Source of the DNA: an uncultured Gammaproteobacteria bacterium
GTDB lineage: Bacteria > Patescibacteriota > Patescibacteriia > Magasanikbacterales > JBBTQS01
Reading direction: 5' to 3'
NCBI GenBank assembly: GCA_965230935.1
Contig: OZ246400.1
Location: forward strand, 173,705 to 237,704
DNA: 64,000 nt
Shown: piece by piece, positions 1 to 51,427 of the stretch
Layout of the letters: the number at the start of each line of letters is the position of its first letter
How positions within the stretch are numbered: position 1 is the stretch's first letter
Program-made: the position numbers and the translations under genes
Notes under the pieces: model-generated
Database searches by the model: none
The model's input: the letters and a program-made list of their open reading frames with translations, nothing else
Told to the model about the DNA's origin: nothing

Positions 1-1
1 A

Positions 2-523
2 GAGACTGATCATCAAAAAGGAAATCCGGATGCTCCGGTTGTTATCGTTGAGTATAGTGATTTTGAGTGTAGTTTTTGTGCATCACATGCGCCAATTATG
101 CAGCAGCTAGTGAATGATCTTGGAGATCAGTTTGTGTTTGTGTATCGTCATTTCCCACTCCGAGGCAATCATCCTAATGCGCAAATATCAGCACAAGCAG
201 CAGAGGCTGCAGCGCTTCAAGGACAATTTTGGCCAATGCACGATCTTTTGTTCGAACAACAAGCAGCGTGGAGTGCAATCGCTGATCCAGCCGAGGTGTT
301 TGTAGGATATGCACAAGAGTTAGGATTAGATCCTGATCAATTCAGATCAGACCTCACAAGCACTTCCACACGCAACCGAGTTAACGATGATTATACTGAT
401 GCGATTCGTCTCGGGTTGCAAAGTACACCAACCTTCTTTATTAATGGAGAAAAATTAGAACGACCACTACAATATGCAGGATTTAAAGCACGTATCGAAG
501 CCGCAGCAGTTCCTCAAGAATAA
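2..523 (+). CDS. DsbA-family thiol:disulfide oxidoreductase (5' end outside window)
   Basis: Frame is open from the window edge (ETDHQKGNPDAPVVIVEYSDFECSFCASHAP...). Thioredoxin-fold CxxC motif CSFC. Stop TAA at 521-523. Confidence 0.8.
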   Translation, partial: ETDHQKGNPDAPVVIVEYSDFECSFCASHAPIMQQLVNDLGDQFVFVYRHFPLRGNHPNAQISAQAAEAAALQGQFWPMHDLLFEQQAAWSAIADPAEVFVGYAQELGLDPDQFRSDLTSTSTRNRVNDDYTDAIRLGLQSTPTFFINGEKLERPLQYAGFKARIEAAAVPQE

Positions 524-542
524 TCAATGGATCATACTCACC

Positions 543-944
543 ATGTTTGTGGTGGCATTGATTGGATTTATTGATGCGGCATACTTGACCATCGAACATT
601 ATCGGGGGAGTGCCGTGCTATGTAGTCTTGTTGAAGGATGCCATGCGGTACTTTCCAGTGCCTACGCTACTATTTTTTGGGGAATACCAACAGCACTCCT
701 TGGGGTATTGTTCTACCTTGGAATGCTTGTAGTTATTTTTTGGACATGGCAAAGCACCATGGCAAAGTGGTTGTTGTTATATTGTTGGGTAACAATTCCC
801 GCGTTGTTGTGGACAGGGTGGATGGTGTATCTTCAGTTATTTGTTTTGGACGCTATTTGTCAGTATTGTATGGTTTCAGCAGCAACCTCGACAATACTCT
901 TTATCTTCGCTATGGTACTGCTGCGAGCTAACCAACGCACATAA
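543..944 (+). CDS. Vitamin K epoxide reductase (VKOR) family membrane protein
   Basis: Multi-TM protein with a loop Cys pair (CSLVEGC) and a CQYC motif. Classic DsbA-VKOR adjacency. The ORF track starts at ATG 474, overlapping dsbA by 50 nt; ATG 543 is more plausible. Confidence 0.75.
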   Translation: MFVVALIGFIDAAYLTIEHYRGSAVLCSLVEGCHAVLSSAYATIFWGIPTALLGVLFYLGMLVVIFWTWQSTMAKWLLLYCWVTIPALLWTGWMVYLQLFVLDAICQYCMVSAATSTILFIFAMVLLRANQRT

Positions 945-34315: not shown

Positions 34316-34359
34316 GGATTTGTGATGCTTGGGATTTGTTGTTCAAAATCAAAACTTTC

Positions 34360-34388: not shown

Positions 34389-34689
34389 ACAGCCGTTCTA
34401 TTTTCTTTTTTTAAAGCCTGTGGATAACGAATTACCTAAAACTGGTAAAAAATCTTCAGGAATCGGTGCTAACTATACCAGGTTTGCTCTACGAATTGTT
34501 GCAGATTTTGGAGCTACTATTGCTGTCCCAGTTGTGCTTTTTGCCTGGATCGGTAAGCGTCTAGACACCAAATATGATACTGCACCTTGGTTGTTGATCA
34601 CTGGTTTTGTGCTTGCAGCAGTTATCTCGGTATTGAGTATCAGAAAAAAAGCAAAAAAACTCGGTAAAGAATTTGAGAAGATGAATTAA
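34378..34689 (+). CDS. AtpZ/AtpI-like small membrane protein (ATP synthase protein I family)
   Basis: Two TM helices (RFALRIVADFGATIAVPVVLFAWIGKRLD...PWLLITGFVLAAVISVL) immediately upstream of atpB. The track ORF begins at a TTG inside the -10 box; the real start is probably a downstream non-ATG codon (e.g. GTG 34420). Confidence 0.6.
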   Translation: MATIQPFYFLFLKPVDNELPKTGKKSSGIGANYTRFALRIVADFGATIAVPVVLFAWIGKRLDTKYDTAPWLLITGFVLAAVISVLSIRKKAKKLGKEFEKMN

Positions 34690-34696
34690 GTTACGT

Positions 34697-35494
34697 ATGG
34701 AAATACCACTTGCTGCAGAAGCAATTTTCCACATTGGCTCATGGCCAGTGACCAACTCCATGATTAATGCATGGATCGCAGTGGTGTTTTTTGTACTTAT
34801 TGGTCTGGCGGTTCGCAACAAAAAAGCAGCGGTCCCGCGAGGAATCCAAAACGTGATGGAAGCAATAGTCGAGTTTATGACTGACTTTATTGTAAAACTC
34901 GTAGGAGATCGAAAGCGTGCTGAACAATTTTTGCCAATTGTAGGCACGTTGTTTTTATTTATCCTCATAAGTAACTGGATGGGGCTTATTCCTGGCACCG
35001 GAACCATCGGCATTTGGGAAATGCATCATGGTAAGATCGTATTGGTTCCATTTTTGCGTCCTGCTGGATCAGATCTCAACATGACGCTTGCTATGGCACT
35101 GTTGGCAGTGACGGTCTCTCATTTTGCCGGGATTGTTGCTATTGGATTTTTCAAACACCTCAACAAATTTGTACAGCTTGGTTCAGTATTTAAAAGCATT
35201 ACCAAAGGACCATTGGCAATCTTTGTAGCGCTCATCGAATTTGTGGTTGGACTTATTGAGATCGTCAGTGAAGTTGCTAAAGTGGTTTCACTCTCTTTGC
35301 GTTTGTTTGGAAACATCTTCGCCGGAGAAGTGCTGCTTACCGTGATGATTGGCTTGATTGCCTATGGTGTTCCAATTCCGTTTATGTTTATGGAGTTGAT
35401 TGTGGGATTTGTACAAGCGTTGGTGTTTGCTGGTTTAGTCTTGGTGTATTTAATGGTCGCGGTTTCAGAACCGCACGAACAAGAAGCCCATTAG
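34697..35494 (+). CDS. atpB: F0F1 ATP synthase subunit a
   Basis: Conserved subunit-a essential Arg region (SLSLRLFGNIFAGE). Confidence 0.95.
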   Translation: MEIPLAAEAIFHIGSWPVTNSMINAWIAVVFFVLIGLAVRNKKAAVPRGIQNVMEAIVEFMTDFIVKLVGDRKRAEQFLPIVGTLFLFILISNWMGLIPGTGTIGIWEMHHGKIVLVPFLRPAGSDLNMTLAMALLAVTVSHFAGIVAIGFFKHLNKFVQLGSVFKSITKGPLAIFVALIEFVVGLIEIVSEVAKVVSLSLRLFGNIFAGEVLLTVMIGLIAYGVPIPFMFMELIVGFVQALVFAGLVLVYLMVAVSEPHEQEAH

Positions 35495-35607
35495 TGAGTT
35501 GTGGTTGGTCTTGGCCTAAGGGAGCAAGACCAACCGTAATTCATTAAGCGTAGTATTCGGAGGTTAAAAATCCAAGTTCCCCTCCAGAAGAACCGCAGGA
35601 GAATTTT

Positions 35608-35826
35608 ATGGACGCAGAAATGATGCGTTTGCTCAGCAAGGCACTGGTAATGGCCATCGGTGGTTTTGCACCAGCACTTGCGATCGGTAAGCTTGTTGCA
35701 AAAGCCATGGAGGCTATTGGTCGCAACCCAGAGGCCGCAGGTAAAGTGTTTGTTCCCATGCTTTTGGGCGCAGCGTTTGCTGAAGCGATCGCGATTTACG
35801 CACTGGTTATTGCATTTACCCTGTAA
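35608..35826 (+). CDS. atpE: F0F1 ATP synthase subunit c
   Basis: 72-aa hairpin proteolipid with conserved carboxylate ([15 protein letters not shown]). Confidence 0.93.
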
Positions 35827-35876
35827 TTAAACCGTTCTTGTGGTGCGCGTGCGCACCACAGATAACCGTTTGAATT

Positions 35877-36440
35877 ATGATTGATATTGTCCATGCCGCA
35901 GAGATTGCCAAAGACGCTGCACATGCAGTGGAGGCAACCGCAAGTGCAAACCCGATTGGAACATTTGGGTTAAATCTTAAGTTGTTTATTGCCCAGTTGG
36001 TCAACTTTGCAATTGTGTTGTTGGTGTTGTGGAAATGGGTATACAAACCATTGCTTAAGATTTTACGAGAGCGAACTGATACCATTGAAAAATCACTTGC
36101 CGATGCAAAACAAATTGAACAAGATCGTCTTGCAGCAGATGAAACAACGGCGGCACAGATTAAACAAGCTAAAGAAGAGGCGCGTGCAATCATTGCGCAA
36201 TCTGCAGAAAAAGCAGAGGCACTTGCGCTTGCAGGTAAGGAAAAAGCAACACAAGAAGTGGAGCAATTGGTGGCACAAGCGAAAGCGCAAATCGCAAGTG
36301 AGCGCACAGCAATGAAAGAAGAGTTAAAAGCTGAGACGATGACGCTGGCGGTAGCGGTAGCGCAAAAGATTTTGCAGGAGAAGATTGACACTAAGGCAGA
36401 CGCGACGCTAATTGCTAAAGCAGTTGATTCAGTGAAATAA
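35877..36440 (+). CDS. atpF: F0F1 ATP synthase subunit b
   Basis: N-terminal TM helix followed by a long charged coiled coil. Position between atpE and atpH. Confidence 0.85.
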   Translation: MIDIVHAAEIAKDAAHAVEATASANPIGTFGLNLKLFIAQLVNFAIVLLVLWKWVYKPLLKILRERTDTIEKSLADAKQIEQDRLAADETTAAQIKQAKEEARAIIAQSAEKAEALALAGKEKATQEVEQLVAQAKAQIASERTAMKEELKAETMTLAVAVAQKILQEKIDTKADATLIAKAVDSVK

Positions 36441-36441
36441 T

Positions 36442-36825
36442 ATGCGCATGACACCGCAACAACTAGGACAGGGATTGTACGAGTTGCTCGCTGATTTGCC
36501 GCGCAACAAGCAGGAGGGAATAATTACTGCGTTTGCAGCGTGGTTGAAGAAACAAGGAAAACTCCATTGGGGAAAATCAATCGCCCGAGCTGTGCAGCAG
36601 TATGGAGATGTTCAAGAGACCAAACAGCGTGTTGAAGCAACGGTGGCGCGTGAGATGCCTGAGCGAGAAGCGGCAGAATTAAAAGTTGCGCTTGAGAAAG
36701 CACTTAGTGCAAAAGAAGTTCGTCTGCATGTTGATGAGCAACTCATCGGCGGAGCAGTTATTCAAAAAGGATTCACCATAATCGATGCAAGTGTAAAAGG
36801 ACAATTGAATCGCCTGCATTCATAA
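36442..36825 (+). CDS. atpH: F0F1 ATP synthase subunit delta (OSCP)
   Basis: Short (127 aa) delta subunit with the C-terminal [12 protein letters not shown] pattern. Position between atpF and atpA. Confidence 0.8.
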
Positions 36826-36836
36826 TCTATACGTAT

Positions 36837-38330
36837 ATGTCAACAAAACAGATTGTAGAATCATTACAAAAACACATTGAGCAGTTTGATACCAATGTTG
36901 AAGTCGCCCAAGTCGGCACTGTTATTGAGGTAGGTGATGGAATTGCGCGCATGAGCGGACTTACCGAGTGTGGGGCAATGGAGATGCTCGAGTTTACTGA
37001 TGGTACGACCGGTGTAGCGCTGAACCTTGAGGAGGAAACTGTTGGGGCGATTATCCTAGGTGAGTACACCGGTATTACCGAAGGTTCGACCGTGAAACGA
37101 ACCGGTAAGATTTTGTCCGTGCCAGTCGGTGAACAAATGCTTGGTCGCGTGGTGAGTCCGTTAGGTGAGGCCAAAGATGGTAAGGGAGAGATTAAAAGCA
37201 AGCAACAATATCCAATTGAGAAGATTGCTCCTGGCGTGATGAAGCGTGAGCCGGTTGATACTCCGGTGCAAACTGGTATTAAGGCAATTGACTCCATGAT
37301 TCCAATTGGTCGTGGGCAACGTGAGTTGATTATTGGAGATCGTCAAACTGGTAAAACCGCTATCGCAGTCGACACGATTATTAACCAAGCCAAGGGAGAC
37401 ATGATCTGTATTTACGTAGCGATTGGTCAGAAAGAATCAAAAGTTGCTCGTATTGTAAATAAACTTGAAGAAGCAGGCGCCATGGATAACACTATCGTAG
37501 TGGTAGCTGGTGCATCAGATCCTGCAGCACTTTCCTTTATTGCACCATACTCCGGGTGTGCCATGGGAGAGTATTTTATGGATCAAGGAAAAGATGTTTT
37601 GGTTGTATATGATGATTTGACCAAACAAGCTTGGGCATATCGTGAGGTTTCACTATTGCTCCGTCGTCCGCCAGGGCGTGAGGCATATCCTGGTGATGTA
37701 TTTTATTTGCACTCTCGTTTGCTTGAGCGCGCCGCGAAGATGAGTAAAGAGCATGGTGGAGGATCACTCACCGCACTACCGATCATCGAAACCCAAGGTG
37801 GTGATGTGTCAGCATATATTCCAACAAACGTGATCTCAATTACTGATGGGCAAATTTACCTCGAGTCCGATCTGTTTTATCGTGGTATTCGCCCAGCACT
37901 TAATGTAGGATTATCTGTGTCTCGTGTTGGTTCAGCAGCACAGATTAAGGCGATGAAAAAAGTCGCCGGACCGCTTCGACTTAACTTGGCGCAGTTTCGA
38001 GAGCTTGAAGCGTTTGCCCAGTTTGCTACTGACTTGGATGACGCTACTCGTCAGCAGATTGAACGAGGAAAGCGTATGGTAGAGATGCTCAAACAGCCAC
38101 AATACGAACCAATGGACGTAGCAAACCAGGTTGCCATTATCTATGCGATTACCAATGGATTTTTGGATGAGGTTGACGTTGATAAAGTTGCGGAGTGGGA
38201 ATCAGCACTTCACGCATACTTTGCTCAGCAAGAAGCTGATTTACTTGCTGAAATTGTAACTGGGGATTGGAAAGAAGTTGAACCAAAATTGAAGAGCGCG
38301 ATTGAAGAGTTTGTGCAATCACAGCAATAA
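36837..38330 (+). CDS. atpA: F0F1 ATP synthase subunit alpha
   Basis: Walker A ([11 protein letters not shown]) and alpha-subunit signature regions. Confidence 0.97.
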
Positions 38331-38344
38331 GCCTTGTACTCACT

Positions 38345-40694
<2,350 letters not shown>

Positions 40695-40696
40695 TT

Positions 40697-41125
40697 ATGG
40701 AAAAATCTCGACTGCAATTTACTATTGTCACTCCTGAGTCAACAATCTTTGACGGATCTGTTGGTCAAGTTTCAATTATGACTGCAGCCGGAGAAATTAC
40801 CGTGTTGCCACATCACATTCCATTGCTTGGAATTTTGACTCCGGGTGAGCTTAAGATTCAAGATGATAGTGGTGAGGAATTACACATCGCAGTAGCAGGT
40901 GGTTTTGTAGAAGTGGCAGCTGATAATCATGTGACGGTTTTGGCTGATGCGGCAGAGCGCGCTGATGAGATTGACTTGGAGCGTGCGCAACAAGCACAAG
41001 AGCGTGCTCGTATTGCGCTTGAGAAAAAACAATTTGCTAATGATATCGAATTTGCCGCGCTGCAAGCCGCACTTGAGAGATCGCTTAGTCGGATTAAAGT
41101 TGCACGGAAACGCCGAAGGAAATAG
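40697..41125 (+). CDS. atpC: F0F1 ATP synthase subunit epsilon
   Basis: N-terminal beta-sandwich and C-terminal helical hairpin. Position after atpD. Confidence 0.9.
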   Translation: MEKSRLQFTIVTPESTIFDGSVGQVSIMTAAGEITVLPHHIPLLGILTPGELKIQDDSGEELHIAVAGGFVEVAADNHVTVLADAAERADEIDLERAQQAQERARIALEKKQFANDIEFAALQAALERSLSRIKVARKRRRK

Positions 41126-41164
41126 GACAACGTAGTGATGCAAAAATTACTTTAGAATAAGAGA

Positions 41165-41205
41165 AAAAAAGACGAATCTGTGTTATAGATTCGTCTTTAA
41201 TTTTA
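41165..41205 (+). terminator. rho-independent terminator of atp operon
   Basis: aaagacgaatc-tgtgttata-gattcgtcttt perfect 11-bp stem followed by a T-run. Confidence 0.8.
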
Positions 41206-41213
41206 GCTAAATA

Positions 41214-41242
41214 TTGACAAATATTCAATTTTAATGTATTGT
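41214..41242 (+). promoter_or_regulatory. sigma70-like promoter for Cys-rich lipoprotein gene (TTGACA-17-TATTGT)
   Basis: aTTGACAaatattcaattttaatgTATTGTg. Followed by a GC-rich structured leader (ggccacagtggcc palindrome; gccatg...catggc stem). Confidence 0.55.
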
Positions 41243-41337
41243 GCTACCTTATAGGAGGGCCACAGTGGCCAGCCATGCGGCGATGATTCCATGGCATGAA
41301 GCTGTGGGTTCTTTGACAATTAGAGGGGGTTCGAAAG

Positions 41338-43989
41338 ATGAATCGAATAGCTATTACCCTTGCCTTTGCCGCCCTGATCGCAGGGTGTGCAGACGCATCG
41401 GTAGATCCAGGAACGGTCGAGTGTTTCGGCGAGGCCTGTGCCAAGCCGGACGCCGATACGACCGGTGGTGGGGAGGTAGTCCCTCCGGATACCACACCGG
41501 ATGTCGGCGACACCGGTGATGACAGTGATGATCCGGATGTGCTCGAGACCGACGACGGTGCTGAGGTGGACGACATCAATGACGCCGATACGGCCGTCGA
41601 GGATGTGGACATCGACGTTCCGGACGAGGGTGATGATGGCGACACGCCGGATGTGCCCGAGACCAACGACGGTGCTGAGGTGGACGACACCGAGGACACC
41701 GACGAGACGACGGACACGGACGAGACCGATACGCCTGTTGATCCCTGCGATGGGGTCGACTGCACGGACGACAACCCGTGCACCATCGACGAGACGTGCG
41801 TGGATGGCGAGTGTGTCAGCTCGCCGGTCGTCTGCAACGATGACAATCCGTGTACGGACGATGCGTGCGTCGTGATTGAAGGTGGGTGCGTGTATACCCC
41901 GAACGCAGTGCTGTGTGAGGATGGCGACCCGTGTACGCTGGAGGACGCCTGTGTGGACGGTTCCTGTGCGCCTGGCGCACCGAAGATCTGCCAGGATGCC
42001 AACTTCTGCACCGTGGATGCGTGCGACCCGGTTTCCGGGGAGTGTGCCTTCGTGGTCGTGCCCGAGCCCTGCGATGATGGGAACGAGTGTACGCAGGAGG
42101 AGGTGTGTCAGCAGGACGCCACGTGTGGCAACGGGGCGGAAGTGGAGTGCGCAGACGAAGATCCGTGCACGAACGACAGCTGCAATCCGGACTCGGGTTG
42201 TGTGTTTGCTCAGAAGGAGTGCGACGACGAAGATCCGTGCACCGTTGACTTGTGCGAGACCGAGTCTGGCGAGTGTACCTTCGTGATCGTGCCGGAGTGC
42301 AAATGCGCTCCTGAGCAGTGTACGGACGACAACCCGTGCACGTCGGACGTGTGCAACCCGCTCGACGGGTCCTGCTCCTTCCCGTTCAACACGGAGCCGT
42401 GTGACGATGGCGACCCGTGTACGTTGGAGGACGCCTGTGCGGACGGTTCCTGTGCGCCTGGCGCGCCCAAGTCGTGTATCAGTGAGAACATCTGCCTGAG
42501 CGCGAGCTGCAATCCGGAGACGGGGAGCTGTGAGCTGAGTGAGAACACCGCGCCGTGTGACGATGGCGATGCGTGCACCCAGGAAGATGTGTGTAACGAA
42601 GGTTCGTGCGCTGGCGTGCTGATGGTGTGTACGGACGACAACCCGTGCACCGAAGGCGACACGTGCAATGGCGGCACTTGCGCCGCCGGGGAAGCCAAGG
42701 TCTGCGAAGACGGTAACCCCTGCACGGTTGGTGCGTGCGACCCGGATTCCGGGGAGTGCGCGTTTTCCCCGGACAACGGGGGAAGCTGCACGGACGACAA
42801 CCCGTGCACCAACGACGTCTGCCAGGACGGGGAGTGTGTGAGCGAGGCCAACAGCGCCTGCTGCACTGAAGACGCGCAGTGCGCTGACGAGCTGGCCTGT
42901 ACGCAGGACCAGTGCGTGGAGCAGTTGTGTAAGAACTTCGTCATTCCGGGCACCGGGCATTGCCTTATCGAGGAGGTGTGTATTCCGGAAGGGGTGGTCA
43001 ATTCGGCCAACGACTGTGAGGCTTGCACCTCGATGGTCAACCCCAACGGGTGGAGCCCGCTTGTGGATGGGAGCGATTGCGAAGATGGACAGGCGTGCAC
43101 CGAAGGCGACACGTGCAATGGCGGCACTTGCGCCGCCGGGGAAGCCAAGGTCTGCGAAGACGGTAACCCCTGCACGGTTGGTGCGTGCGACCCGGATTCC
43201 GGGGAGTGCGCGTTTTCCCCGGACAACGGGGGAAGCTGCACGGACGACAACCCGTGCACCAACGACGTCTGCCAGGACGGGGAGTGTGTGAGTACCACAG
43301 TCGCGTGCGACGACGGTCTCCCATGCACTCTGGATTCGTGTGACGAGGCGGGCGAGTGTCAGTACGAGCCCAAGACGTGTGACGACTCCAATCCGTGCAC
43401 CATCGATTCGTGCGAGCAGAGCACCGGCGATTGCGTAGGTGAGCTTGCTACGGTGAAGTTCCAGGACATCACCGCGGCCAAGTGCCTCACGCTTCCGCCG
43501 TTCATGCCATGGTTCGCGTTTGATGACTTCGATGACTCGGAGTCGCCCAATTCGAACATCTGGCACTGCGGTCACGACTGCCTGAACATCGACGCGGCCT
43601 GCCAGTCGCAAGTCGGTACGATCCGTCCCGGGTTTACGCACAACGGGGACCAGCACACCTTTACCATCGACCCGCAAGCAGCGTTTCCGGAACTTGACGG
43701 CATGACCATCTCGGCCGCCTTCACGTTCCGCAGGCAAGGGGTAACGCCCAACGACCTGACGCCGCCTGAGGTTGTGGTGAAGCAGACCATCGACGGAATC
43801 GAAACGGTGCTTGCCTCGCAGTTCCTGGGCAAATCACCGAACAACAATTTCGATTTCCTGGTCGAGTTCCTGGTTGGTGATGGTTTGGTCACGGTGTACT
43901 ACACGCCCAACGACTTCATCCCCGACTCGGAACGCACGCTGCACATCATGCTCGACTCGAACATCGAGCTGCAGCCTGTGTGTCCCTGA
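41338..43989 (+). CDS. large Cys-rich tandem-repeat lipoprotein (CxDDNPCTxDxC repeats, slime-mold/Dicty-CTDC-like)
   Basis: Lipoprotein signal (MNRIAITLAFAALIAGC), acidic D/E/T-rich linker, then roughly 20-25 repeats of about 22-25 aa with 4 Cys each (e.g. CTDDNPCTIDETCVDGECV). C-terminal roughly 170-aa Cys-poor domain. GC-rich codons. High-GC cassette gene E. Confidence 0.85.
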   Translation: MNRIAITLAFAALIAGCADASVDPGTVECFGEACAKPDADTTGGGEVVPPDTTPDVGDTGDDSDDPDVLETDDGAEVDDINDADTAVEDVDIDVPDEGDDGDTPDVPETNDGAEVDDTEDTDETTDTDETDTPVDPCDGVDCTDDNPCTIDETCVDGECVSSPVVCNDDNPCTDDACVVIEGGCVYTPNAVLCEDGDPCTLEDACVDGSCAPGAPKICQDANFCTVDACDPVSGECAFVVVPEPCDDGNECTQEEVCQQDATCGNGAEVECADEDPCTNDSCNPDSGCVFAQKECDDEDPCTVDLCETESGECTFVIVPECKCAPEQCTDDNPCTSDVCNPLDGSCSFPFNTEPCDDGDPCTLEDACADGSCAPGAPKSCISENICLSASCNPETGSCELSENTAPCDDGDACTQEDVCNEGSCAGVLMVCTDDNPCTEGDTCNGGTCAAGEAKVCEDGNPCTVGACDPDSGECAFSPDNGGSCTDDNPCTNDVCQDGECVSEANSACCTEDAQCADELACTQDQCVEQLCKNFVIPGTGHCLIEEVCIPEGVVNSANDCEACTSMVNPNGWSPLVDGSDCEDGQACTEGDTCNGGTCAAGEAKVCEDGNPCTVGACDPDSGECAFSPDNGGSCTDDNPCTNDVCQDGECVSTTVACDDGLPCTLDSCDEAGECQYEPKTCDDSNPCTIDSCEQSTGDCVGELATVKFQDITAAKCLTLPPFMPWFAFDDFDDSESPNSNIWHCGHDCLNIDAACQSQVGTIRPGFTHNGDQHTFTIDPQAAFPELDGMTISAAFTFRRQGVTPNDLTPPEVVVKQTIDGIETVLASQFLGKSPNNNFDFLVEFLVGDGLVTVYYTPNDFIPDSERTLHIMLDSNIELQPVCP
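42644..42842 (+). repeat. 199-bp perfect direct repeat, copy 1 (inside Cys-rich lipoprotein gene)
   Basis: Identical base-for-base to 43094-43292. Encodes CTEGDTCNGGTCAAGEAKVCEDGNPCTVGACDPDSGECAFSPDNGGSCTDDNPCTNDVCQDGECVS. Confidence 0.95.
43094..43292 (+). repeat. 199-bp perfect direct repeat, copy 2
   Basis: Identical to 42644-42842. The 450-nt offset is exactly 150 codons, so recombination between copies would be in-frame. Confidence 0.95.
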
Positions 43990-44020
43990 CCCTCAAGACA
44001 ACAACAAACCTACAACAGTA

Positions 44021-44055
44021 AGAGCTCTCCTTTCCAGGAGGGCTCTTTCTATTTA
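44021..44055 (+). terminator. hairpin terminator after Cys-rich lipoprotein gene
   Basis: agagctctcc-tttcca-ggagggctct 10-bp stem followed by ttctatttatt. Confidence 0.7.
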
Positions 44056-44084
44056 TTGCGTTTTAACGCGTTTTCCTTCACAAT

Positions 44085-47039
44085 ATGGCCATGGATATTT
44101 TGGGATCACTTAATGCTCAACAAAAAGAAGCGGTACTCCATCGTGGAAGCCCGCTGATGATTGTTGCTGGCGCCGGAACCGGAAAAACAACGGTATTAAC
44201 ACGCCGTATTGCACATATTATTACGCACGATACCGTACCGCCGAAGAATATTATGGCAGTTACGTTTACCCAAAAAGCTGCGGCTGAATTAGTAACTCGC
44301 ATTGGAGAGTTTATTCCTGAGGCACCCTACGAAATGGTCGCTGGGACATTTCATGGTGTATGCGAGGGGATTTTGCGCGAGTACGGTCATGATATTGGAT
44401 TGCCAGTTGGGTTTACGGTACTTACTGAACACCAAGCGTGGATGTTGGTAAAACAACATCTGAGTGAATTTGATTTGCAGTATTATCGCCCGCGGGGGAA
44501 TCCAACACAATTTGTACAATCACTCCTTACACACTTTTCAAGATGTAAAGATGAACTTGTAACGTGGCAAGCATACATAGATTATGTCGAAGAACTTAGG
44601 CTCAATACCGATACTGCCACTGAACAATTCACTCAAGAGTATCAACGGTTATCAGAACTTGCTCATGCATATAAAACGTACGAAGAATTATTGTTGAAGA
44701 ATTCATATCTTGATTTTGGTTCGTTGTTACTCTATACCGTCGAGTTAATCCAAAATCGACCAAACATTCTTGAAAAACTTCAAGAAAAATTTGCTCATAT
44801 CATTGTTGATGAGTTTCAAGATACCAACTATGCACAGTATTCACTGTTACAAACCCTTTGTGATTCTTCAAAAAATAATCCACCAGAGATTACTGTGGTA
44901 GGGGATGACAATCAAAGTATTTATCGTTTTCGCGGAGCAACGATTGGGAACATTTTGCGGTTTACCGATGATTTCCCGAAAACAAAGCAGGTGGTACTTA
45001 TCCAAAATTACCGTTCTACTCAAGGAATTTTGGATCTTGCATACCAACTCATTAGCCATAACAATCCGCATACACTTGAATCCAGATTGAAAATTGACAA
45101 ACAACTTGTTGCACAACGTACCGGGACATCAGCGGTACAATACATCACGAGTACTGATGCCTACAGTGAGTGCATACGTATTGCACAGCACATTAATGTG
45201 GTGCATGACTCTGGAGCACCATGGAATAGCATCGGTATTCTTATCCGAGCGCATCATCATGCAGAAGAGTTTAAAAGCGTATTACCAAAGCAAGGAATCC
45301 CGATTGCTGTTCATGGTCCAGGAGGATTTTTTGAACACCCAATCGTGCTGTATTGTTTGGCTGTTCTAACCATTATTACCAACGCGCATGAATCCCAGGC
45401 GTTGTTTTCTGTTCTGGATTATCCACCATTTCGACTCCATCATGAAGACCGGATGGCATTGATACAGTTTGCAAAACGTAAAGGGATTTCGCTATATCAG
45501 GCATGTCAAAATCACCAGCAAGTCACTCTTTCAGATCAAGGTCACGCACAAATAGAAAAGCTGGCGAGTGATTTGCGGTTTGTCGCAGATCTACGAAGTC
45601 GAGTCGGGATATCTGAATGTATCATCCAATGGTTGGAACGGAGCGGCGCTATGCAATATTTTGCAAAGGCGCAAGAAGATGGTTCTATCGAGGAGCCTTT
45701 TGTCGCACTAGAGTCATTTTGTATTTACAGTAAAGAGTTCGAGCGACTTCACACTATTAAAAGTGTAGAAGCATTTCTGGCTTGGCACGATGATGTGTTG
45801 GCTTCAGGAGGATACGATCAACAGCAAGAAGTACAGCGACAGACTGATGCGGTTCAAATTATGACTGTTCATGGAGCCAAGGGGTTGGAATTTGATCATG
45901 TCATCTTGCCGCAATTGGTCCATTTACGTTTTCCGACACGTGCCCGACGCGAAAAAATTCCGATCCCTGAAGCAATCCGAATGCATAAAGAAAATGCAGC
46001 AAGTGAACATATTCTTGAAGAGCGTCGATTAGCATATGTGGCGATTACCAGAGCACGTGATTCACTTTTGCTTTCTCATGCAAGCAACTATGGTGGGAAG
46101 ACAACGCGCAAGCCATCGCAATTTATTACCGAGATGGGATTGGATGAACTCCCAGATACACAGACAATCTCAATAGTCTCATCTGAAGCTCCAACACCAC
46201 CTGCAGCTCGCAAACCAAAGGCTCATATCGTTGGACAACAGCGCACCCCAAAACGAATGTCATTCTCTCAATTGCAAACATATGTGCGTTGTCCGTTGCA
46301 GTACAAATATCGATATGTGCTGCGCGTTCCAACTGAAGGAAATCATGCCTTAAGTTTTGGTTCAACTATTCACAATACATTGCAGGCATGGATGGAGAAA
46401 CTCAAGATACTGCGAAGTGCGCAACAGCAAGGACTATTTGATACTCCGCAAAATACGAGTAGCGATGATGGCAGTGTGCCTGATGTGCAAGAGTTATTGA
46501 ATATCTATCATGAAAAATGGATTGATGATTGGTATCAAAATGAACAACAAAAAAAGGAGTATCAAGATCATGGTGTACAAATATTGAAAACATTTTACGA
46601 ACACCACCAACCTTTTCCACAACTTCCACAAGCGATTGAACAATCGTTTACCATTCCGATTGGAAATTGTACTTTTACCGGAAGAATTGATAGAATAGAT
46701 AAAAATGAGCAAGGGGTCACGATCATTGATTACAAGACCGGTGAGCCAAAAACAACATTACAAAAAATTGATAAGCAGCAATTGCACTTGTATCATCTTG
46801 CGCTTAAGCGTGACCCACGACTTGCATATCTTGGTCCGGTGAACTCACTTGAGTACTGGTATCTGAAAGATCATAGTATAGCAACCATCCCTGCTGACAC
46901 AGAGCTACTACTTGAATTTGAACAAGAGGTAATCACCGTTACTGACCAGATAGCTGCTCAAGAATTTGATCCCAAGCCAAACCCATTTACATGTCGCAGT
47001 TGCGACTTTAAAACCATTTGTCCGTATCGTAAATTGTAA
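44085..47039 (+). CDS. UvrD/PcrA-family helicase fused to a C-terminal PD-(D/E)XK (RecB/Cas4-like, 4-Cys) nuclease domain
   Basis: Helicase motif I (AGAGTGKTTVLTRRIA) and further UvrD-like motifs. C-terminus has a Cys cluster (FTCRSCDFKTICPYR) typical of Cas4/AddB-type nucleases. Confidence 0.85.
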   Translation: MAMDILGSLNAQQKEAVLHRGSPLMIVAGAGTGKTTVLTRRIAHIITHDTVPPKNIMAVTFTQKAAAELVTRIGEFIPEAPYEMVAGTFHGVCEGILREYGHDIGLPVGFTVLTEHQAWMLVKQHLSEFDLQYYRPRGNPTQFVQSLLTHFSRCKDELVTWQAYIDYVEELRLNTDTATEQFTQEYQRLSELAHAYKTYEELLLKNSYLDFGSLLLYTVELIQNRPNILEKLQEKFAHIIVDEFQDTNYAQYSLLQTLCDSSKNNPPEITVVGDDNQSIYRFRGATIGNILRFTDDFPKTKQVVLIQNYRSTQGILDLAYQLISHNNPHTLESRLKIDKQLVAQRTGTSAVQYITSTDAYSECIRIAQHINVVHDSGAPWNSIGILIRAHHHAEEFKSVLPKQGIPIAVHGPGGFFEHPIVLYCLAVLTIITNAHESQALFSVLDYPPFRLHHEDRMALIQFAKRKGISLYQACQNHQQVTLSDQGHAQIEKLASDLRFVADLRSRVGISECIIQWLERSGAMQYFAKAQEDGSIEEPFVALESFCIYSKEFERLHTIKSVEAFLAWHDDVLASGGYDQQQEVQRQTDAVQIMTVHGAKGLEFDHVILPQLVHLRFPTRARREKIPIPEAIRMHKENAASEHILEERRLAYVAITRARDSLLLSHASNYGGKTTRKPSQFITEMGLDELPDTQTISIVSSEAPTPPAARKPKAHIVGQQRTPKRMSFSQLQTYVRCPLQYKYRYVLRVPTEGNHALSFGSTIHNTLQAWMEKLKILRSAQQQGLFDTPQNTSSDDGSVPDVQELLNIYHEKWIDDWYQNEQQKKEYQDHGVQILKTFYEHHQPFPQLPQAIEQSFTIPIGNCTFTGRIDRIDKNEQGVTIIDYKTGEPKTTLQKIDKQQLHLYHLALKRDPRLAYLGPVNSLEYWYLKDHSIATIPADTELLLEFEQEVITVTDQIAAQEFDPKPNPFTCRSCDFKTICPYRKL

Positions 47040-47041
47040 TT

Positions 47042-47332
47042 ATGCAATCTCTTTCCGATGACCTGCACAAACGAGTTGCCAAAGCCGGCATCACCAAACA
47101 AGTTGAGGCTTCAGCTATTATTGAACAGGCAACCGAAGCGCTCAAGAAGGTGATGAAAGAACATGCATCCCATATTCGTCCACAATATGTTAAAAATGGC
47201 ACCCTTACCGTTACGTGCGATTCAGCGGCTATTGCACATCAACTTAAACTTCAGGAGCCTCAAATTTTAGCGGAAATTCACAACAATAGCGGTTCAACAA
47301 CCACAGTTGAGCGTATTCGCTATCTATTGTAG
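47042..47332 (+). CDS. DUF721 (DciA-like) protein
   Basis: NGTLTVTCDSAAIAHQLKLQEPQILAEIHN matches the DUF721 core (G.L.V...S.AWA.EL..L.P.IL..LN). Confidence 0.7.
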   Translation: MQSLSDDLHKRVAKAGITKQVEASAIIEQATEALKKVMKEHASHIRPQYVKNGTLTVTCDSAAIAHQLKLQEPQILAEIHNNSGSTTTVERIRYLL

Positions 47333-47388
47333 AGGATCTTGCGCAAAACCAACATCTGCAGTATCCTGCCAAGTAGGCAGGTGTTTGT

Positions 47389-47793
47389 TTGCCAATATTG
47401 GCATCTATGACTTTACGACAATATTTGCTTGTGATGAGCTTTGCTACATTGCTATGCTTGATAGCATTGGGGTTTGTGATTTTTATGATTGACCCCTTTG
47501 AATCAAATCTCCTCGGCGTGGTGCTCTTTTATGCAAGCTTCTTTCTCTCAGTGCTGGGTGTCTTTTCATTGGTAGGGTTTGGTATTGAGAGCCTAGTGTT
47601 TAAACGAGAAACCATTATTTTTCGGAAGGTCAAAAAAAGTTTTCGCCAAGGGGTGTTGTTTGCCACATTACTTTGTGTTGTGTTGGCGTTAGCACACGCC
47701 CAAATGTTGTTTTGGTGGACGATTTTACTCTTGGCTATCGGCTTGAGCTGCATTGAATTTGTGTGGTCTCGAGAAAAACGTATTCGATCGTAA
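47389..47793 (+). CDS. hypothetical membrane protein
   Basis: 134 aa with four hydrophobic helices. Confidence 0.55.
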   Translation: MPILASMTLRQYLLVMSFATLLCLIALGFVIFMIDPFESNLLGVVLFYASFFLSVLGVFSLVGFGIESLVFKRETIIFRKVKKSFRQGVLFATLLCVVLALAHAQMLFWWTILLLAIGLSCIEFVWSREKRIRS

Positions 47794-47795
47794 CT

Positions 47796-49031
47796 ATGAT
47801 ATTCAAACAATCAAAACTCTTTACCAAGACAAGTAAAGAAAATCCAAAAGACGAAGTAAGTATTAATGCACAGCTCCTTTCTCGAGCGGGATACATTGAT
47901 AAGGTCATGGCCGGAGTGTACTCATATCTCCCGCTTGGTTTGCGCGTACTTACTAAGATCGCAAAAATTGTGCGATCTGAAATGGATGGCATTGGCGCGC
48001 AAGAGCTGTTGTTGCCAGCGCTTCATCCAAAAGAATATTATCTCGCAACCAAGCGCTGGGAAGCGATTGATGTATTGTTTAAACTCGAAGGCGCAGGGAG
48101 TAAAGAACTTGCGCTTGGATCAACGCACGAAGAGATTGTCACACCACTGTTGCAAAAATTCGTACATTCGTATAAGGATCTACCAACAGCGGTATATCAA
48201 ATTCAAACAAAGTTCCGAAATGAACCACGGGCAAAATCAGGGCTACTTCGTGGTCGCGAATTTTTGATGAAAGATTTGTACAGTTTTCATAGAGATCAAG
48301 CTGATTTTGAACAGTATTATACAACAGTAACTGAAGCGTATCACCGTGTATTTGCCCAGTGTGGACTTGATGCAAAGTACACAGCTGCAGACGGAGGGGT
48401 GTTTAGTAAGTTCTCTCATGAATTTCAAGTGTTTACTCCCCATGGTGAGGATATGGTGTTTAGCTGTGGCGCGTGTGATGTGCATACCAACAAAGAATTA
48501 GTGAGTGACAATACATGTGAGCAGTGTGGGGGAGAGCGTGAGGAAAATAAAGCAATTGAGGTGGGAAATATTTTCCCATTGAAGACAAAGTTTTCTACTG
48601 CATTTGATTTTACCTATCCTGATGAGAAAAATACCCAACAAGAGATTCTTATGGGGTGCTATGGCATCGGAGTTAGTCGACTGATGGGAGCTATTGTTGA
48701 GGTGCATCATGACGACGCTGGTATTATTTGGCCGAAGGAAGTGGCGCCATATGATGTGCATGTGATTGCCCTGGGTCAGGACGAGGCGGTCATGAAAAAA
48801 GCGCAAGAGATAGCGATTACCCTTTCAGAACATGGAAAAGATGTGCTACTTGATGATCGTGATGTGCGTGCAGGAGTGAAGTTTGCTGATAGTGATTTGA
48901 TTGGCCTACCAGTCCGTGTTGTGGTAAGTTCGGGATTGCTTGAGAACAATCAAGTTGAAGTCAAAGAGCGAATCGCTGTTGAGGCTACCACCTTGGATGA
49001 AGCACAACTGTATAGCCAGTGGGGCTTTTAA
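47796..49031 (+). CDS. proS: prolyl-tRNA synthetase (short form, no insertion editing domain)
   Basis: Class-II motifs (FRNE, GRE...DLYSF, GCYGIGVSRL) and a C-terminal anticodon-binding domain. ATG 47796 follows the upstream stop. Confidence 0.92.
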   Translation: MIFKQSKLFTKTSKENPKDEVSINAQLLSRAGYIDKVMAGVYSYLPLGLRVLTKIAKIVRSEMDGIGAQELLLPALHPKEYYLATKRWEAIDVLFKLEGAGSKELALGSTHEEIVTPLLQKFVHSYKDLPTAVYQIQTKFRNEPRAKSGLLRGREFLMKDLYSFHRDQADFEQYYTTVTEAYHRVFAQCGLDAKYTAADGGVFSKFSHEFQVFTPHGEDMVFSCGACDVHTNKELVSDNTCEQCGGEREENKAIEVGNIFPLKTKFSTAFDFTYPDEKNTQQEILMGCYGIGVSRLMGAIVEVHHDDAGIIWPKEVAPYDVHVIALGQDEAVMKKAQEIAITLSEHGKDVLLDDRDVRAGVKFADSDLIGLPVRVVVSSGLLENNQVEVKERIAVEATTLDEAQLYSQWGF

Positions 49032-49052
49032 AACACAACAAATACAAAAACA

Positions 49053-50108
49053 ATGATTAAGAATTTTTTTGGAAAATTCAGCAAGGATCTTGCTATTGAT
49101 CTTGGTACATCAAATACATTGGTGTATGTAAAGGACAAGGGGATTGTGGTTCAAGAACCTTCTGTCGTGGCGGTGAATGTCCGTACTGAGCAGATTTTGG
49201 CAGTGGGAAACGAAGCAAAAAATATGTTGGGGAAAACCCCGAAGCATATTGTGACCACGCGGCCGTTGATTAATGGGGTGATTTCTGATTTTGAAGTCAC
49301 TGAGCGCATGCTCAAATATTTTATTGACAAAGTACATGAGGACGAATTTACATTTGTCCCCCGACCACGAATTGTGATTTCAGTACCGCTGGGTATTACT
49401 GAAGTAGAACGTAAAGCAGTGGAGGATGCGGTTATTGCCGCCGGAGCGCGTGAAGTATTTACTGTAGAAGAGCCTATGGTAGCGGCAATCGGCGCGCGCA
49501 TGTCAGTTGAAGATCCGATTGGAAGTATGATTGTCCAAATTGGAGGAGGAAATACGCAAATTGCTATTATCTCACTTGAGGGAATCGTCAGTTGGCGAAC
49601 CAGCCTTATTGCCGGGGATGAAATGACGAAAAATATCGTACAGTATACTCGTGAAGTATTTGGATTATATCTGGGCACCGCGCATGCAGAGAACATTAAA
49701 ATCGCCATTGGTTCGGCGCAACAAGCAGAAGAAGTCACTGAATATCCGGTTCGTGGTCGAGATGTGTTAAGTGGATTGCCACGTGAAGTTATGATTGATA
49801 GTACGCATGTCTTTCGAGCAATTTCGCGCAGTATCGAAAAAATCATTGAAGAGATTAAAGCCACGCTTGAGGTAACGCCTCCTGAAGTGGTCGCTGATAT
49901 TCATGAGCGAGGGATTGTGCTCTCTGGTGGTGGTGCGATGTTACGTGATTTGGATAGTGTGATCTCACAAGCGATCGGTATTCCGGTGCGGGTGGTAGAT
50001 GACCCGATTACGTGTGTGGTTCGTGGGAACGGTATTTTGCTTGAAGATGAGCGTCTGCGCAAAGAAGTTGCACTTCCTTCGGCAAAAGAAGAATCAATTA
50101 CTGTGTAG
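49053..50108 (+). CDS. mreB: rod-shape-determining protein MreB
   Basis: Actin-fold motifs (DLGTSNTLVYV, GGGTQIAI...). Confidence 0.95.
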   Translation: MIKNFFGKFSKDLAIDLGTSNTLVYVKDKGIVVQEPSVVAVNVRTEQILAVGNEAKNMLGKTPKHIVTTRPLINGVISDFEVTERMLKYFIDKVHEDEFTFVPRPRIVISVPLGITEVERKAVEDAVIAAGAREVFTVEEPMVAAIGARMSVEDPIGSMIVQIGGGNTQIAIISLEGIVSWRTSLIAGDEMTKNIVQYTREVFGLYLGTAHAENIKIAIGSAQQAEEVTEYPVRGRDVLSGLPREVMIDSTHVFRAISRSIEKIIEEIKATLEVTPPEVVADIHERGIVLSGGGAMLRDLDSVISQAIGIPVRVVDDPITCVVRGNGILLEDERLRKEVALPSAKEESITV

Positions 50109-50114
50109 TCGTAT

Positions 50115-50918
50115 ATGCGAACACGTCGTCAAATCAGATGGTGGTATCTGATTGGGATCTTAGCTATTGTGATCGGCTTGGGAGCTCTTGGTGCACTCCG
50201 TCCATTGCGCAGCGCAATTATTCAGAGTGTTACGCCACTGCAGCGCTTTTTTTATCAACGTGGCATTGCAGACACGCCAGCAAGTTTGACTGAGCTAAGT
50301 CGTCAAGAATTGATTACAAAAGTAACTGAGCTAGAGAATCAAATTGTACGCATGCAGCAAGAATATGTGACAGAGGCACTGCAACAAGAGGAATATCAGA
50401 CGCTTCAGCAAATAACACAATTCACCTCACGCCTTGATAATTACCGCAGTGTCTCTGCCAACGTCATCGGCCTGGGGGCGAACCAAGATCCATCAGTGAT
50501 TATTATTGATAAAGGAGCGCAGAACAGTGATGTTGTGCTTGGTGCTCCGCTCGTGTCTCCAGAAGGTGCATTTATTGGAACTGTTGCCGAGTTGTATGAC
50601 AGAGTCTCGCATGTTCGATTACTGACTAATCCTCGAGCAGCAGTCAGTGTCTCTGCGATTGACAGCACAGAACCGGTCGGCATGGTACAGGGACGTTTTG
50701 GATTATCTGCTGGACTCTCGCTTGTACCCAAAACCGTATCTATTGCTCCAGGAGATTTAGTGTATACCTCAGGGTTAGATAGTCGTATTCCACCTGGAAT
50801 TCTTGTCGCAGAAGTGGAAACGATTGAAGAAGAACCTAACACTCAATTTTTTCATGGTCTGGTTAATTTACGGTTTTTACCACAAACACTTCATGTGGTA
50901 AGTGTGCTGCTTGAGTAA
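50115..50918 (+). CDS. mreC: rod-shape-determining protein MreC
   Basis: N-terminal TM and coiled coil followed by beta-rich domains. Position after mreB. Confidence 0.85.
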   Translation: MRTRRQIRWWYLIGILAIVIGLGALGALRPLRSAIIQSVTPLQRFFYQRGIADTPASLTELSRQELITKVTELENQIVRMQQEYVTEALQQEEYQTLQQITQFTSRLDNYRSVSANVIGLGANQDPSVIIIDKGAQNSDVVLGAPLVSPEGAFIGTVAELYDRVSHVRLLTNPRAAVSVSAIDSTEPVGMVQGRFGLSAGLSLVPKTVSIAPGDLVYTSGLDSRIPPGILVAEVETIEEEPNTQFFHGLVNLRFLPQTLHVVSVLLE

Positions 50919-50923
50919 CTACT

Positions 50924-51427
50924 ATGCGTAAACTTATTCTCGCCAGTTTACTTTTTATCAGTATTATCGTGCTGCAGTTTGGTGTACTCAATGCATTTGC
51001 ACATCCGATCTCAGCAATTAATATTCCTGTAGCGCTAGCACTGACTATGATTTATTTTGAAACAGCACGCGACAGTTGGGCATGGCCACTGTTATTTGGT
51101 GTGGTGTGGGATGCACTGAGTCCAAATGGATTTGGAGTATTTATTATGACATTTATTCTTTCCTGGTTGATTATTCGTACCGTGTTTTTGCGTGTGGTAA
51201 CCAATATGACATGGTACTCCTACATTGCATTTTCTGCGTTTGGTGTGGTGGTATGGTATACCATATATAGTATTGTGGTATTGGTGTGGAATCAAGCACT
51301 TGCGATTCCGCTCAGTCATCTTTGGGAAATTGTAGTTCCTGCCGCAATTGCCACTTGGGTGCTCGCATTATTTTTGTATAGCATATTTCGTATTGCTATG
51401 CGTTCGCTAATGCCGACACATATTTAA
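50924..51427 (+). CDS. mreD: rod-shape-determining protein MreD
   Basis: Small polytopic membrane protein. Position between mreC and pbp2. Confidence 0.75.
   Translation: MRKLILASLLFISIIVLQFGVLNAFAHPISAINIPVALALTMIYFETARDSWAWPLLFGVVWDALSPNGFGVFIMTFILSWLIIRTVFLRVVTNMTWYSYIAFSAFGVVVWYTIYSIVVLVWNQALAIPLSHLWEIVVPAAIATWVLALFLYSIFRIAMRSLMPTHI

Follow-up and report, generated by a model that had tools for sequence, protein, structure and literature searches.

The 64,000-nt stretch of DNA analysed here (hereafter the window) contains on its forward strand, at 41338..43989, a gene for a large cysteine-rich protein (the CTDC gene), whose product is predicted from its sequence to be a bacterial lipoprotein built around an array of repeats of the Pfam family PF00526 (Dicty_CTDC). 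Taking the evidence together, we consider it probable that this protein is a lipid-anchored, disulfide-stapled surface stalk that presents a variable recognition head, and that its gene was inserted in the ancestor of a clade of the Candidate Phyla Radiation (CPR). The host is a patescibacterial (CPR) bacterium near Magasanikbacteria: its genome comprises approximately 0.93 Mb (a contig of 931,061 bp) with ~43% GC, and those relatives of its AtpA that carry names (~71–76% identity) are assigned to the 'Patescibacteria group' and 'Candidatus Magasanikbacteria'. The CTDC lipoprotein is a member of a very large, uncharacterised repeat family and not a new kind of system. What the present analysis adds to an initial annotation of the same DNA is the CPR host, an insertion slot shared by a CPR subclade, a foreign codon signature that persists, an orphan and fast-evolving head domain, and the presence of DsbA and VKOR genes in the window.

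The open reading frame (ORF) had been placed exactly by the initial annotation, but its product comprises 883 and not 880 amino acids (aa). The further parts described there were recovered as well: a lipobox signal followed by an acidic linker, about 100 cysteines (97 were counted, 11% of all residues), 20–25 four-cysteine repeats (20 units were parsed) and a cysteine-poor C-terminal domain of about 170 residues (183 aa, of which only five are Cys). The N-terminus, MNRIAITLAFAALIAGC, is a signal peptide with a canonical lipobox (LIAGC, with IAG-C at positions −3 to +1) under the pattern [LVI][ASTVI][GAS]C ending an N-terminal signal peptide, so that export by the Sec system, processing by signal peptidase II (SPII) and lipidation of Cys17 are predicted. 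The protein as a whole is extremely acidic, with 128 Asp and 71 Glu (199 in total) against 13 Lys and 5 Arg (18). Its parts are as follows, model confidence being given as the predicted local distance difference test (pLDDT) of AlphaFold.

41338..41388 (+): signal peptide with lipobox and predicted lipidated Cys17, assigned from the sequence
41389..41745 (+): acidic linker rich in Asp, Glu, Thr and Pro, aa 18–136, with Cys29 and Cys34, assigned by composition and predicted to be disordered (pLDDT 34–44)
41746..42858 (+): CTDC repeat array I, aa 137–507, 14 four-cysteine A/B units, assigned by PF00526, unit parse and model (pLDDT 63–94)
42644..42842 (+): first copy of a 199-nt repeat, the last 87 nt of which, joined to the insert, are confirmed by the independent contig L090
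42859..43077 (+): Cys-rich insert, aa 508–580, including a degenerate unit at aa 515, assigned by unit parse and orthologue alignment, with low model confidence
43078..43437 (+): CTDC repeat array II, aa 581–700, five units, assigned by PF00526, unit parse and model (pLDDT 79–91)
43094..43292 (+): second copy of the 199-nt repeat, wholly covered by contig L090
43438..43989 (+): Cys-poor C-terminal domain, aa 701–883, with the stop codon, predicted to be beta-rich and left as an orphan by empty homology searches

Between aa 137 and 700, the 20 four-cysteine units of 23–33 aa each start at residues 142, 166, 193, 218, 245, 271, 295, 328, 355, 380, 407, 431, 456, 484, 515, 581, 606, 634, 657, and 681. 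The units follow the pattern C-x5-C-x4/5-C-x3-6-C with a conserved Asp in each. Nineteen are canonical; the one at aa 515 is degenerate, runs into an insert of 66 aa and lies within the 73-aa Cys-rich segment (CC...CxxC...NPxGW) that interrupts the array. The cysteine columns are invariant in an alignment of 39 homologues, and two unit subtypes (A and B) alternate to give a super-period of ~52 aa, an alternation also visible in the consensus of these homologues. In agreement with the slime-mold-like repeat and the internal periodicity expected by the initial annotation, autocorrelation of the Cys positions peaked at lags 6 (z 5.8) and 52 (z 5.3) relative to 1000 shuffles, and PF00526 matched in 13 stretches with 121.5 bits (E 1.1e-35), a score so far above the cut-off of 27 bits that the repeat is far beyond chance.

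Analysis of the DNA of the repeat region with Tandem Repeats Finder (TRF) detected no tandem array, because the units are old and diverged. The gene nevertheless contains duplicated DNA: the two 199-nt copies are perfectly identical, in frame and 450 nt (150 codons) apart, a second pair of 84 nt is 89% identical, and the linker harbors a 114-nt duplication with copies at 41515–41588 and 41629–41702 (82% identity). The 199-nt and 84-nt pairs point to recent intragenic duplication or conversion. A six-frame motif scan of the window revealed no second CTDC copy. Two long antisense ORFs lie inside the gene (41320–43737, 805 aa, and 42210–43328, 372 aa, both on the reverse strand); their translations, rich in Arg, Val, and Ala, suggest that they result from GC-rich codon bias and are not genes. 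Wrong-frame or antisense ORFs were also chosen by the gene callers applied to public contigs (L085 6415–6993 and 7395–8714, and the contig-end ORFs of L089 and L090).

An AlphaFold model built with the 39-sequence alignment confidently predicts the CTDC repeats to be beta-hairpin modules, with paired short strands in each unit and pLDDT values of 63–94, mostly above 80, for aa 140–505 and 580–700. The linker, the insert and the C-terminal head were modelled at pLDDT below 50. When the model was compared with solved structures by Foldseek, the sole significant matches in the PDB were to the arm of the Entamoeba Gal/GalNAc lectin heavy subunit HgL (E 3e-7 to 2e-4). A means of forming the disulfides that such modules would need is encoded at the left end of the window by two overlapping genes.

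1..523 (+): DsbA-like thioredoxin-fold protein with a CSFC motif, cut by the left window edge; Pfam Thioredoxin_4 and DSBA
474..944 (+): VKOR-family membrane protein with a CQYC motif; Pfam VKOR, 88 bits

In bacteria without DsbB, a DsbA-VKOR pair forms extracytoplasmic disulfides. By analogy, DsbA would be the oxidant of the CTDC protein and VKOR would re-oxidize DsbA, and finding both in a genome as small as 0.93 Mb is in keeping with a requirement for oxidizing exported Cys-rich proteins. For the lipid anchor, no gene for Lgt or LspA was present among the annotated genes of the 64-kb window, ~870 kb of the genome lying outside it.

These features also bear on the idea that the cysteines serve as thiols, in a metal-binding or redox-buffering protein of the metallothionein type. 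Such a function might be suggested by the Cys content of 11%, and a metallothionein-like Cys-rich peptide of 47 aa is encoded at the corresponding site of a relative without the CTDC gene (L098, see below). The lipobox export signal would, however, place the protein outside the cytoplasm, DsbA and VKOR genes are present, the cysteines fall into strict four-Cys groups of fixed spacing that the AlphaFold model confidently packs into hairpin modules, and the CxC and CC clusters of metallothioneins are missing save for one of each. We thus regard a metallothionein-like role as highly improbable.

The CTDC gene is located between atpC (40697–41125) and a gene for a UvrD/PD-(D/E)XK helicase (44085–47039). 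In five related CPR genomes (L085, L086, L087, L088, and L095), a CTDC lipoprotein gene likewise directly follows atpC, and these syntenic relatives are also the closest AtpA matches, with ~78–84% identity to the AtpA of the window. They are listed here together with a more distant relative, with the GC content at third codon positions (GC3) of the CTDC gene set against that of the housekeeping genes of the same genome.

L085 (ERZ23496502): AtpA 83%; 843-aa CTDC protein after atpC, split by the gene caller into wrong-frame ORFs; GC3 0.61 vs 0.38–0.41
L088 (GCA_964480225.1): AtpA 82%; 924-aa CTDC protein after atpC; GC3 0.68 vs 0.42
L086/L087 (GCA_964627525.1): AtpA 82%; 861/877-aa CTDC protein (one protein, two start calls); GC3 0.40 vs 0.15–0.21
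L095 (SRR22387749): AtpA 78%; 780-aa CTDC protein after atpC; GC3 0.69 vs 0.40–0.47
L098 (GCA_028688375.1): AtpA 73%; no CTDC gene after atpC, two small ORFs in its place

As in the window, the helicase gene and dciA lie downstream of the CTDC gene in L085 and L095, while the contigs of L086–L088 end earlier. The backbone of L098 is whole (MetRS, CvpA, TatD, the atp operon, helicase, DciA, and MreBC) and lacks only the CTDC gene. The five occupied slots and this empty site indicate, as judged from gene order, that the CTDC gene entered the slot in the ancestor of a CPR subclade and was then retained. The best BLASTP match of the window protein is the L088 protein, to which it aligns from end to end (1–872 vs 1–893), and alignment of the orthologues with MAFFT recovered a common order of lipobox, acidic linker, array, insert, array, and beta-rich C-terminus. 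The lipobox is conserved (LAGC in L088 and L085, LASC in L087, LGC in L095), as is the Cys-rich insert in L088 and L085. The orthologues differ in length (780–924 aa), Cys content (79–113) and unit number, and L087 and L095 contain extra CxxC-type modules. The gene looks foreign, yet by this conservation it appears not to be a recent one-off.

Additional small ORFs were observed at this site. The empty site of L098 (14845–15417) holds a 99-aa ORF and the metallothionein-like 47-aa peptide with 13 Cys (MEEEAKPCGCGPECKCEGECSCSPEGCQCGDTCECGCGHNNEADAEE). In L088 two ORFs of 115 and 109 aa with a GC3 of 0.59–0.67 lie between atpC and the CTDC gene (8422–9095), and in L086 a 74-aa ORF occupies the same position (11678–11902); neither has a counterpart in the window. 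The slot may accumulate extra small GC-rich genes.

The CTDC gene is a genuine part of this genome and did not arise in assembly. AtpD, AtpA, and further proteins encoded in the window are recorded both from the 931,061-bp contig and from ENA/Logan assemblies of PRJEB17505. Contigs assembled independently from several runs of that project agree with the window at 29327–42032, 42756–48743, and 43317–57332 to 99.99–100%. They cover both gene junctions, the insert, and the layout of first copy, insert, and second copy, with 42033–42755 as the only part outside this independent cover. A contaminant, a chimera or a recent acquisition without lasting role could be suspected on the grounds that the GC3 of the gene is 0.76 against ~0.37 in the host, that contig L001, assembled from short reads, is broken off within the repeats, and that the exact protein is absent from the protein collection. 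Against this, both junctions are reproduced in assemblies from different runs, intact colinear orthologues occupy the locus in the five related genomes while the site of the distant relative is empty, the reading frame is intact and has its own promoter-like site and terminator, and a mobile element is not indicated by any integrase, tRNA, or flanking repeat. An origin of this kind is extremely improbable.

A search of 5.8 billion proteins identified 5919 homologues, and a scan of GTDB genomes, a set that does not include the genome of the window itself, 351 loci; the details given here derive from the top 120 proteins and the best 80 of the 351 loci. The top matches are PF00526 proteins of 1100–1500 aa, and those with a source name stem from metagenome-assembled genomes (MAGs) of Deltaproteobacteria/Myxococcales. 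Their alignment to the window protein, with 30–43% identity (E down to 4.5e-165), is confined to the repeat part. Among the best 80 loci, the majority are labelled Myxococcales or Myxococcota, many are from freshwater sites, and single MAGs carry up to ~10 CTDC paralogues. The link to myxobacterial Cys-rich proteins drawn by the initial annotation is thereby substantiated. A crude lipobox pattern was found in 58 of the top 120 homologues. In these 120, the median number of units per array is 38, and the non-repeat C-terminal part beyond the array has a median length of 158 aa; many homologues bear lectin, NHL, LamG-like, or LTD domains beside the array. The layout of anchor, array, and head thus appears from these sequences to be the family norm, of which the window protein would be a short version. 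Neither its linker nor its C-terminal domain recurs in the top 120 proteins and the best 80 loci.

Other searches with the CTDC protein were negative: a scan of viral contigs with patterns derived from it found no relative, a PDB sequence search detected no solved structure, and NCBIfam at E ≤ 10 gave no match to TIGR02232. That family was not matched by five homologues either (four from Myxococcota-type MAGs and one labelled Azambacteria), so that this search had no positive control. In the literature, nothing specific was found on the BioProject PRJEB17505 or on CTDC or Cys-rich surface proteins of CPR bacteria, nor were expression, localization, or binding data found on any bacterial CTDC protein. 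The insert module (aa 508–580) has weak matches in the Myxococcota MAG loci L076 (4121–5089, four in tandem) and L080 (13738–13962). By these matches, the insert appears to be a second type of module from the repertoire of Myxococcota rather than an invention of CPR bacteria.

The name of the repeat family is historical, and nothing points to a eukaryotic source. A transfer from dictyostelids or other amoebae could be invoked since the Pfam family was defined on Dictyostelium proteins and the best solved fold match is amoebozoan. However, all of the closest homologues with a source name are bacterial, very numerous, and mostly from Myxococcota, the gene has a bacterial lipobox, promoter, and terminator, and the protein has no sequence similarity to the Entamoeba lectin. 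An inter-domain origin is therefore scarcely conceivable.

The codon signature of the CTDC gene is foreign to its genome. As the initial annotation had stated, the gene is GC-rich (0.62 vs 0.42–0.47 in neighboring genes), and its GC3 of 0.76 exceeds the 0.33–0.40 of eight neighboring genes by far. Synonymous preferences are reversed relative to the host for the Asp, Cys, Asn, Glu, Pro, Thr, and Ala codons (for instance GAC 0.67 vs 0.24, TGC 0.64 vs 0.16, and AAC 0.77 vs 0.29 in the neighbors), and linker, repeats, and head all carry the high-GC3 signature. Amino acid composition was rejected as the cause of the high GC content, because the gene departs from the host in GC3 and in its choice of synonymous codons. 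In seven Myxococcota-type loci, by comparison, the GC content of the CTDC genes agrees with that of the locus (within 0.02 in six, within 0.03 in the seventh). A further contig, L097 (GCA_016234725.1, labelled Candidatus Azambacteria and putatively of CPR origin), contains at 10001–20398 four clustered CTDC genes for proteins of 1184, 423, 572, and 733 aa, with a GC3 of 0.70–0.85 against 0.47–0.53 in the adjoining Wzy and GT4 genes. In view of this contig and the five genomes that share the locus, the remark in the initial annotation that such a protein is unusual for a small low-GC bacterium has to be softened. The distribution of CTDC genes, rather than a tree, fits Myxococcota-like lineages as the reservoir and CPR bacteria as recipients.

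The route of transfer left no recognizable marks in the window: neither integrase nor inverted repeats nor flanking duplications were found, the sole tRNA gene is at 8373, and the gene has no PHROG match. With no viral-contig relative in addition, a phage or mobile-element origin has no support. The GC3 excess persists in all six genomes, whose own GC3 ranges from ~0.15 to 0.47, which is not what an ancient transfer followed by amelioration predicts. It might stem from biased gene conversion at a repeat locus that recombines, from repeated re-import, or from selection at the codon level. Further GC-rich islands with a GC3 of 0.65–0.76 were noticed in the window at 13305–14228 on the reverse strand and at 17509–18576, 18711–19478, and 19591–20238 on the forward strand. 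They are separate ORFs with AT-rich spacers between them, orphans without Pfam or PHROG match, and they share the foreign-looking signature of the CTDC gene (host genes 0.33–0.40) although their sequences are unrelated to it.

The window protein is 29–41% identical to its orthologues. Pairwise identities within the group of CTDC orthologues are 29–48%, compared with 78–83% for AtpA, 86–89% for AtpD, and 48–51% for the helicase, making the CTDC gene by sequence comparison the fastest-evolving one in its neighborhood. This divergence is most pronounced at the distal end. For aa 701–883, no homologue was found by word search or by phmmer in 1.84 billion representative proteins, and no match in Pfam, PHROGs, or the PDB (by sequence and by profile); BLAST detects no similarity between the window head and the C-termini of the orthologues. 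When these C-termini are aligned by position, they have 17–21% identity and four invariant columns, with W-x-H/L-C, a second Cys, Q, LP, and PG-x-V-x-V as shared marks. Both models of the head predict beta strands at low confidence (pLDDT 37.6 for AlphaFold with a single sequence). The head thus has the appearance of a fast-evolving orphan domain specific to a small CPR clade.

The rapid change of the head is relevant to the main alternative, according to which the protein would be a passive structural component of envelope or matrix that recognizes no specific partner, for instance an acidic fiber that binds calcium, a coat resembling an S-layer, or a spacer in the wall. PF00526 is named after slime-mold matrix and spore-coat proteins, an excess of 199 acidic over 18 basic residues and a conserved Asp per unit would suit such a fiber, and Pfam searches revealed no recognizable binding domain. 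A structural protein would, on the other hand, not be expected to evolve so much faster than its neighbors or to have its distal domain changed beyond recognition, in other family members the same array bears heads of the lectin, NHL, or LamG type, and the single copy in the window does not match the abundance of paralogues expected of a coat. On balance we consider a purely structural role rather unlikely. A second alternative is a polymorphic-toxin-like or contact-dependent effector, in which the stalk would deliver a hypervariable toxic domain. A conserved stalk with a hypervariable C-terminus does resemble polymorphic toxins, and CTDC repeats serve as N-terminal display modules of teneurin-like toxins of Myxococcota (bioRxiv 10.1101/2025.11.11.687626). 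The head, however, matches no toxin family in Pfam, PHROGs, or the PDB, neither a YD/Rhs shell nor PT-xx or cleavage motifs were observed, and a terminator and the conserved helicase gene follow downstream instead of a small immunity-like gene. Furthermore, the orthologue C-termini can be aligned by position as one beta-rich domain and do not look like swapped cassettes, and we judge a toxin function to be very unlikely.

A surface stalk with a recognition head could operate as follows. After export by Sec and SPII, lipidation of Cys17 would anchor the protein at the outside of the cell membrane, from where the disordered acidic linker of ~120 residues would span the wall zone. The 20 CTDC modules, oxidized by the DsbA-VKOR pair, would form a stiff rod stapled by disulfides, at the end of which the 183-residue beta-rich head, as the fastest-evolving part, is likely to bind the ligand. 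The stalk would thereby display a variable domain for recognition, facing either another cell, be it a partner or a host, or the matrix. Inserted between atpC and the helicase gene in the ancestor of a CPR clade, the gene would have been kept while it diverged rapidly and its repeats were reshuffled. Lipidation, disulfide bonds, surface location, and a role in binding or adhesion are all predictions in this scheme, of which host attachment is a plausible one. A stalk or adhesin is now better supported, owing to the structure model, the DsbA and VKOR genes, and the fast-evolving distal domain, and a role in recognition or attachment is favored by the concentration of divergence at the tip, the reshuffling of repeats, the lectin-type heads within the family, and the surface biology of CPR bacteria. 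According to one study (PMC8080830), CPR genomes encode elaborate surfaces, including large proteins to which a part in host attachment is ascribed, and gain genes by horizontal gene transfer.

A more far-reaching version of the recognition stalk would make the CTDC lipoprotein the determinant of host range in this CPR clade, captured from among the surface proteins of a GC-rich Myxococcota-like partner and possibly of the host itself, with GC3 kept high by recombination or conversion and with the other GC-rich islands belonging to the same pool. This we regard as unlikely. It would imply that binding is homotypic or mimics surface proteins of the host, and that the GC3, instead of being subject to slow amelioration, is upheld because recombination with DNA from the donor continues or because gene conversion is GC-biased at a repeat locus prone to recombination. 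The GC-rich orphan islands of the window would then form, together with the CTDC gene, one continuously refreshed accessory pool.

CPR bacteria (Patescibacteria) account for a large part of bacterial diversity, and an attached life on other cells is assumed for most of them. To our knowledge, the molecules by which they choose their partners are largely unknown outside a few cultured Saccharibacteria, and we know of no solved structure or known function for the CTDC family in bacteria. As a single, fast-evolving gene at a conserved locus that encodes a stalk with a clade-specific tip, the CTDC gene is a concrete candidate for a determinant of partner choice in a Magasanikbacteria-like lineage and a good experimental handle on CPR surface biology. 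It also connects CPR genomes to the huge, unstudied expansion of CTDC lipoproteins in Myxococcota, and a foreign-looking codon signature that persists in a vertically retained gene bears on horizontal transfer, amelioration, and gene conversion in reduced genomes.

The surroundings of the gene are consistent with an own transcription unit, which is predicted from a promoter-like site and terminators.

41168..41198 (+): intrinsic-terminator-like hairpin after atpC that ends the atp operon, with a 14-bp stem and a T-rich tail
41214..41242 (+): sigma-70-like promoter, TTGACA-17-TATTGT, in an AT-rich spacer, with 10/12 matches to the consensus and called by this match only
41243..41337 (+): putative 5' leader of ~95 nt, with the ribosome-binding site GAGGGGG 8 nt upstream of the ATG, assigned from the sequence
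44020..44047 (+): intrinsic-terminator-like hairpin upstream of the helicase gene, with a 12-bp stem (six GC pairs) and a T-rich tail

A structured RNA in the leader was considered and rejected, as its predicted fold was no better than those of shuffled sequences (z −0.41) and no Rfam family matched. Elsewhere the window holds housekeeping genes, among them the atp operon, aminoacyl-tRNA synthetases, MreBC, PBP2, primase, a sigma factor, superoxide dismutase, and AhpC. Some metabolic and stress genes at 9843–11006, 14488–17410, and 23750–24914 are unexpected in a minimal CPR genome. They encode a cyclopropane-fatty-acyl-phospholipid synthase-like methyltransferase, two flavin amine-oxidase/desaturase-like proteins, an Fe/Mn superoxide dismutase, and an AhpC peroxiredoxin, and suggest exposure to oxygen. 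Two additional forward-strand ORFs of 651 aa (6269–8224) and 263 aa (8569–9360) have no Pfam or PHROG match, and the 651-aa protein is a singleton cluster in a collection of 15 billion proteins.

Among known systems, the Myxococcota CTDC-array lipoproteins are the closest sequence relatives of the window protein. They have the same layout of lipobox, array, and non-repeat C-terminal part and are annotated as 'hypothetical protein', 'cysteine-rich repeat protein', or 'slime mold repeat-containing protein'. Unlike the window protein, they are longer (median 38 vs 20 units), occur as many paralogues per genome, and are encoded by genes whose GC content equals that of the genome; moreover, neither the linker nor the C-terminal domain of the window protein is present in the top 120 proteins and 80 loci. 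With the slime-mold CTDC proteins of the Dictyostelium type, the window protein shares tandem four-Cys units of ~24 aa and a PF00526 match well above threshold. Slime-mold spore-coat proteins are secreted, contain 7–13% Cys, and are thought to be cross-linked by disulfides (PMC3068167), a range that includes the 11% Cys of the window protein. In contrast to them, the latter is a bacterial lipoprotein with an acidic linker, a strict alternation of A and B units, a Cys-rich insert, and an orphan C-terminal domain, and has no mucin-like or proline repeats. The CTDC repeat is counted among the families without known structure (PMC8078820).

A comparable investment of a reduced genome in large exported proteins for host recognition and attachment is made by Vampirococcus lugosii (PMC8080830). 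Its surface proteins contain WD40, PKD, integrin, fibronectin, or DUF11 domains, whereas CTDC is not among the domains listed in the available part of that source. The nearest structural parallel is the Entamoeba lectin subunit HgL, the elongated arm of which is a series of small Cys-rich domains, stiffened by disulfides within and between the domains, and is situated between membrane anchor and distal core (PMC12948311). In both proteins, as far as the model can be trusted, a chain of small Cys-rich beta-hairpin domains would join a membrane anchor to the distal core of a surface adhesin. However, HgL has no sequence homology to the window protein and reaches a global template modelling (TM) score of only 0.07–0.10, its transmembrane anchor is C-terminal whereas the window protein has an N-terminal lipid anchor, and sugar binding by the Entamoeba lectin resides in a separate light chain. 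The likeness to HgL is a working analogy of mechanism and not one of family membership.

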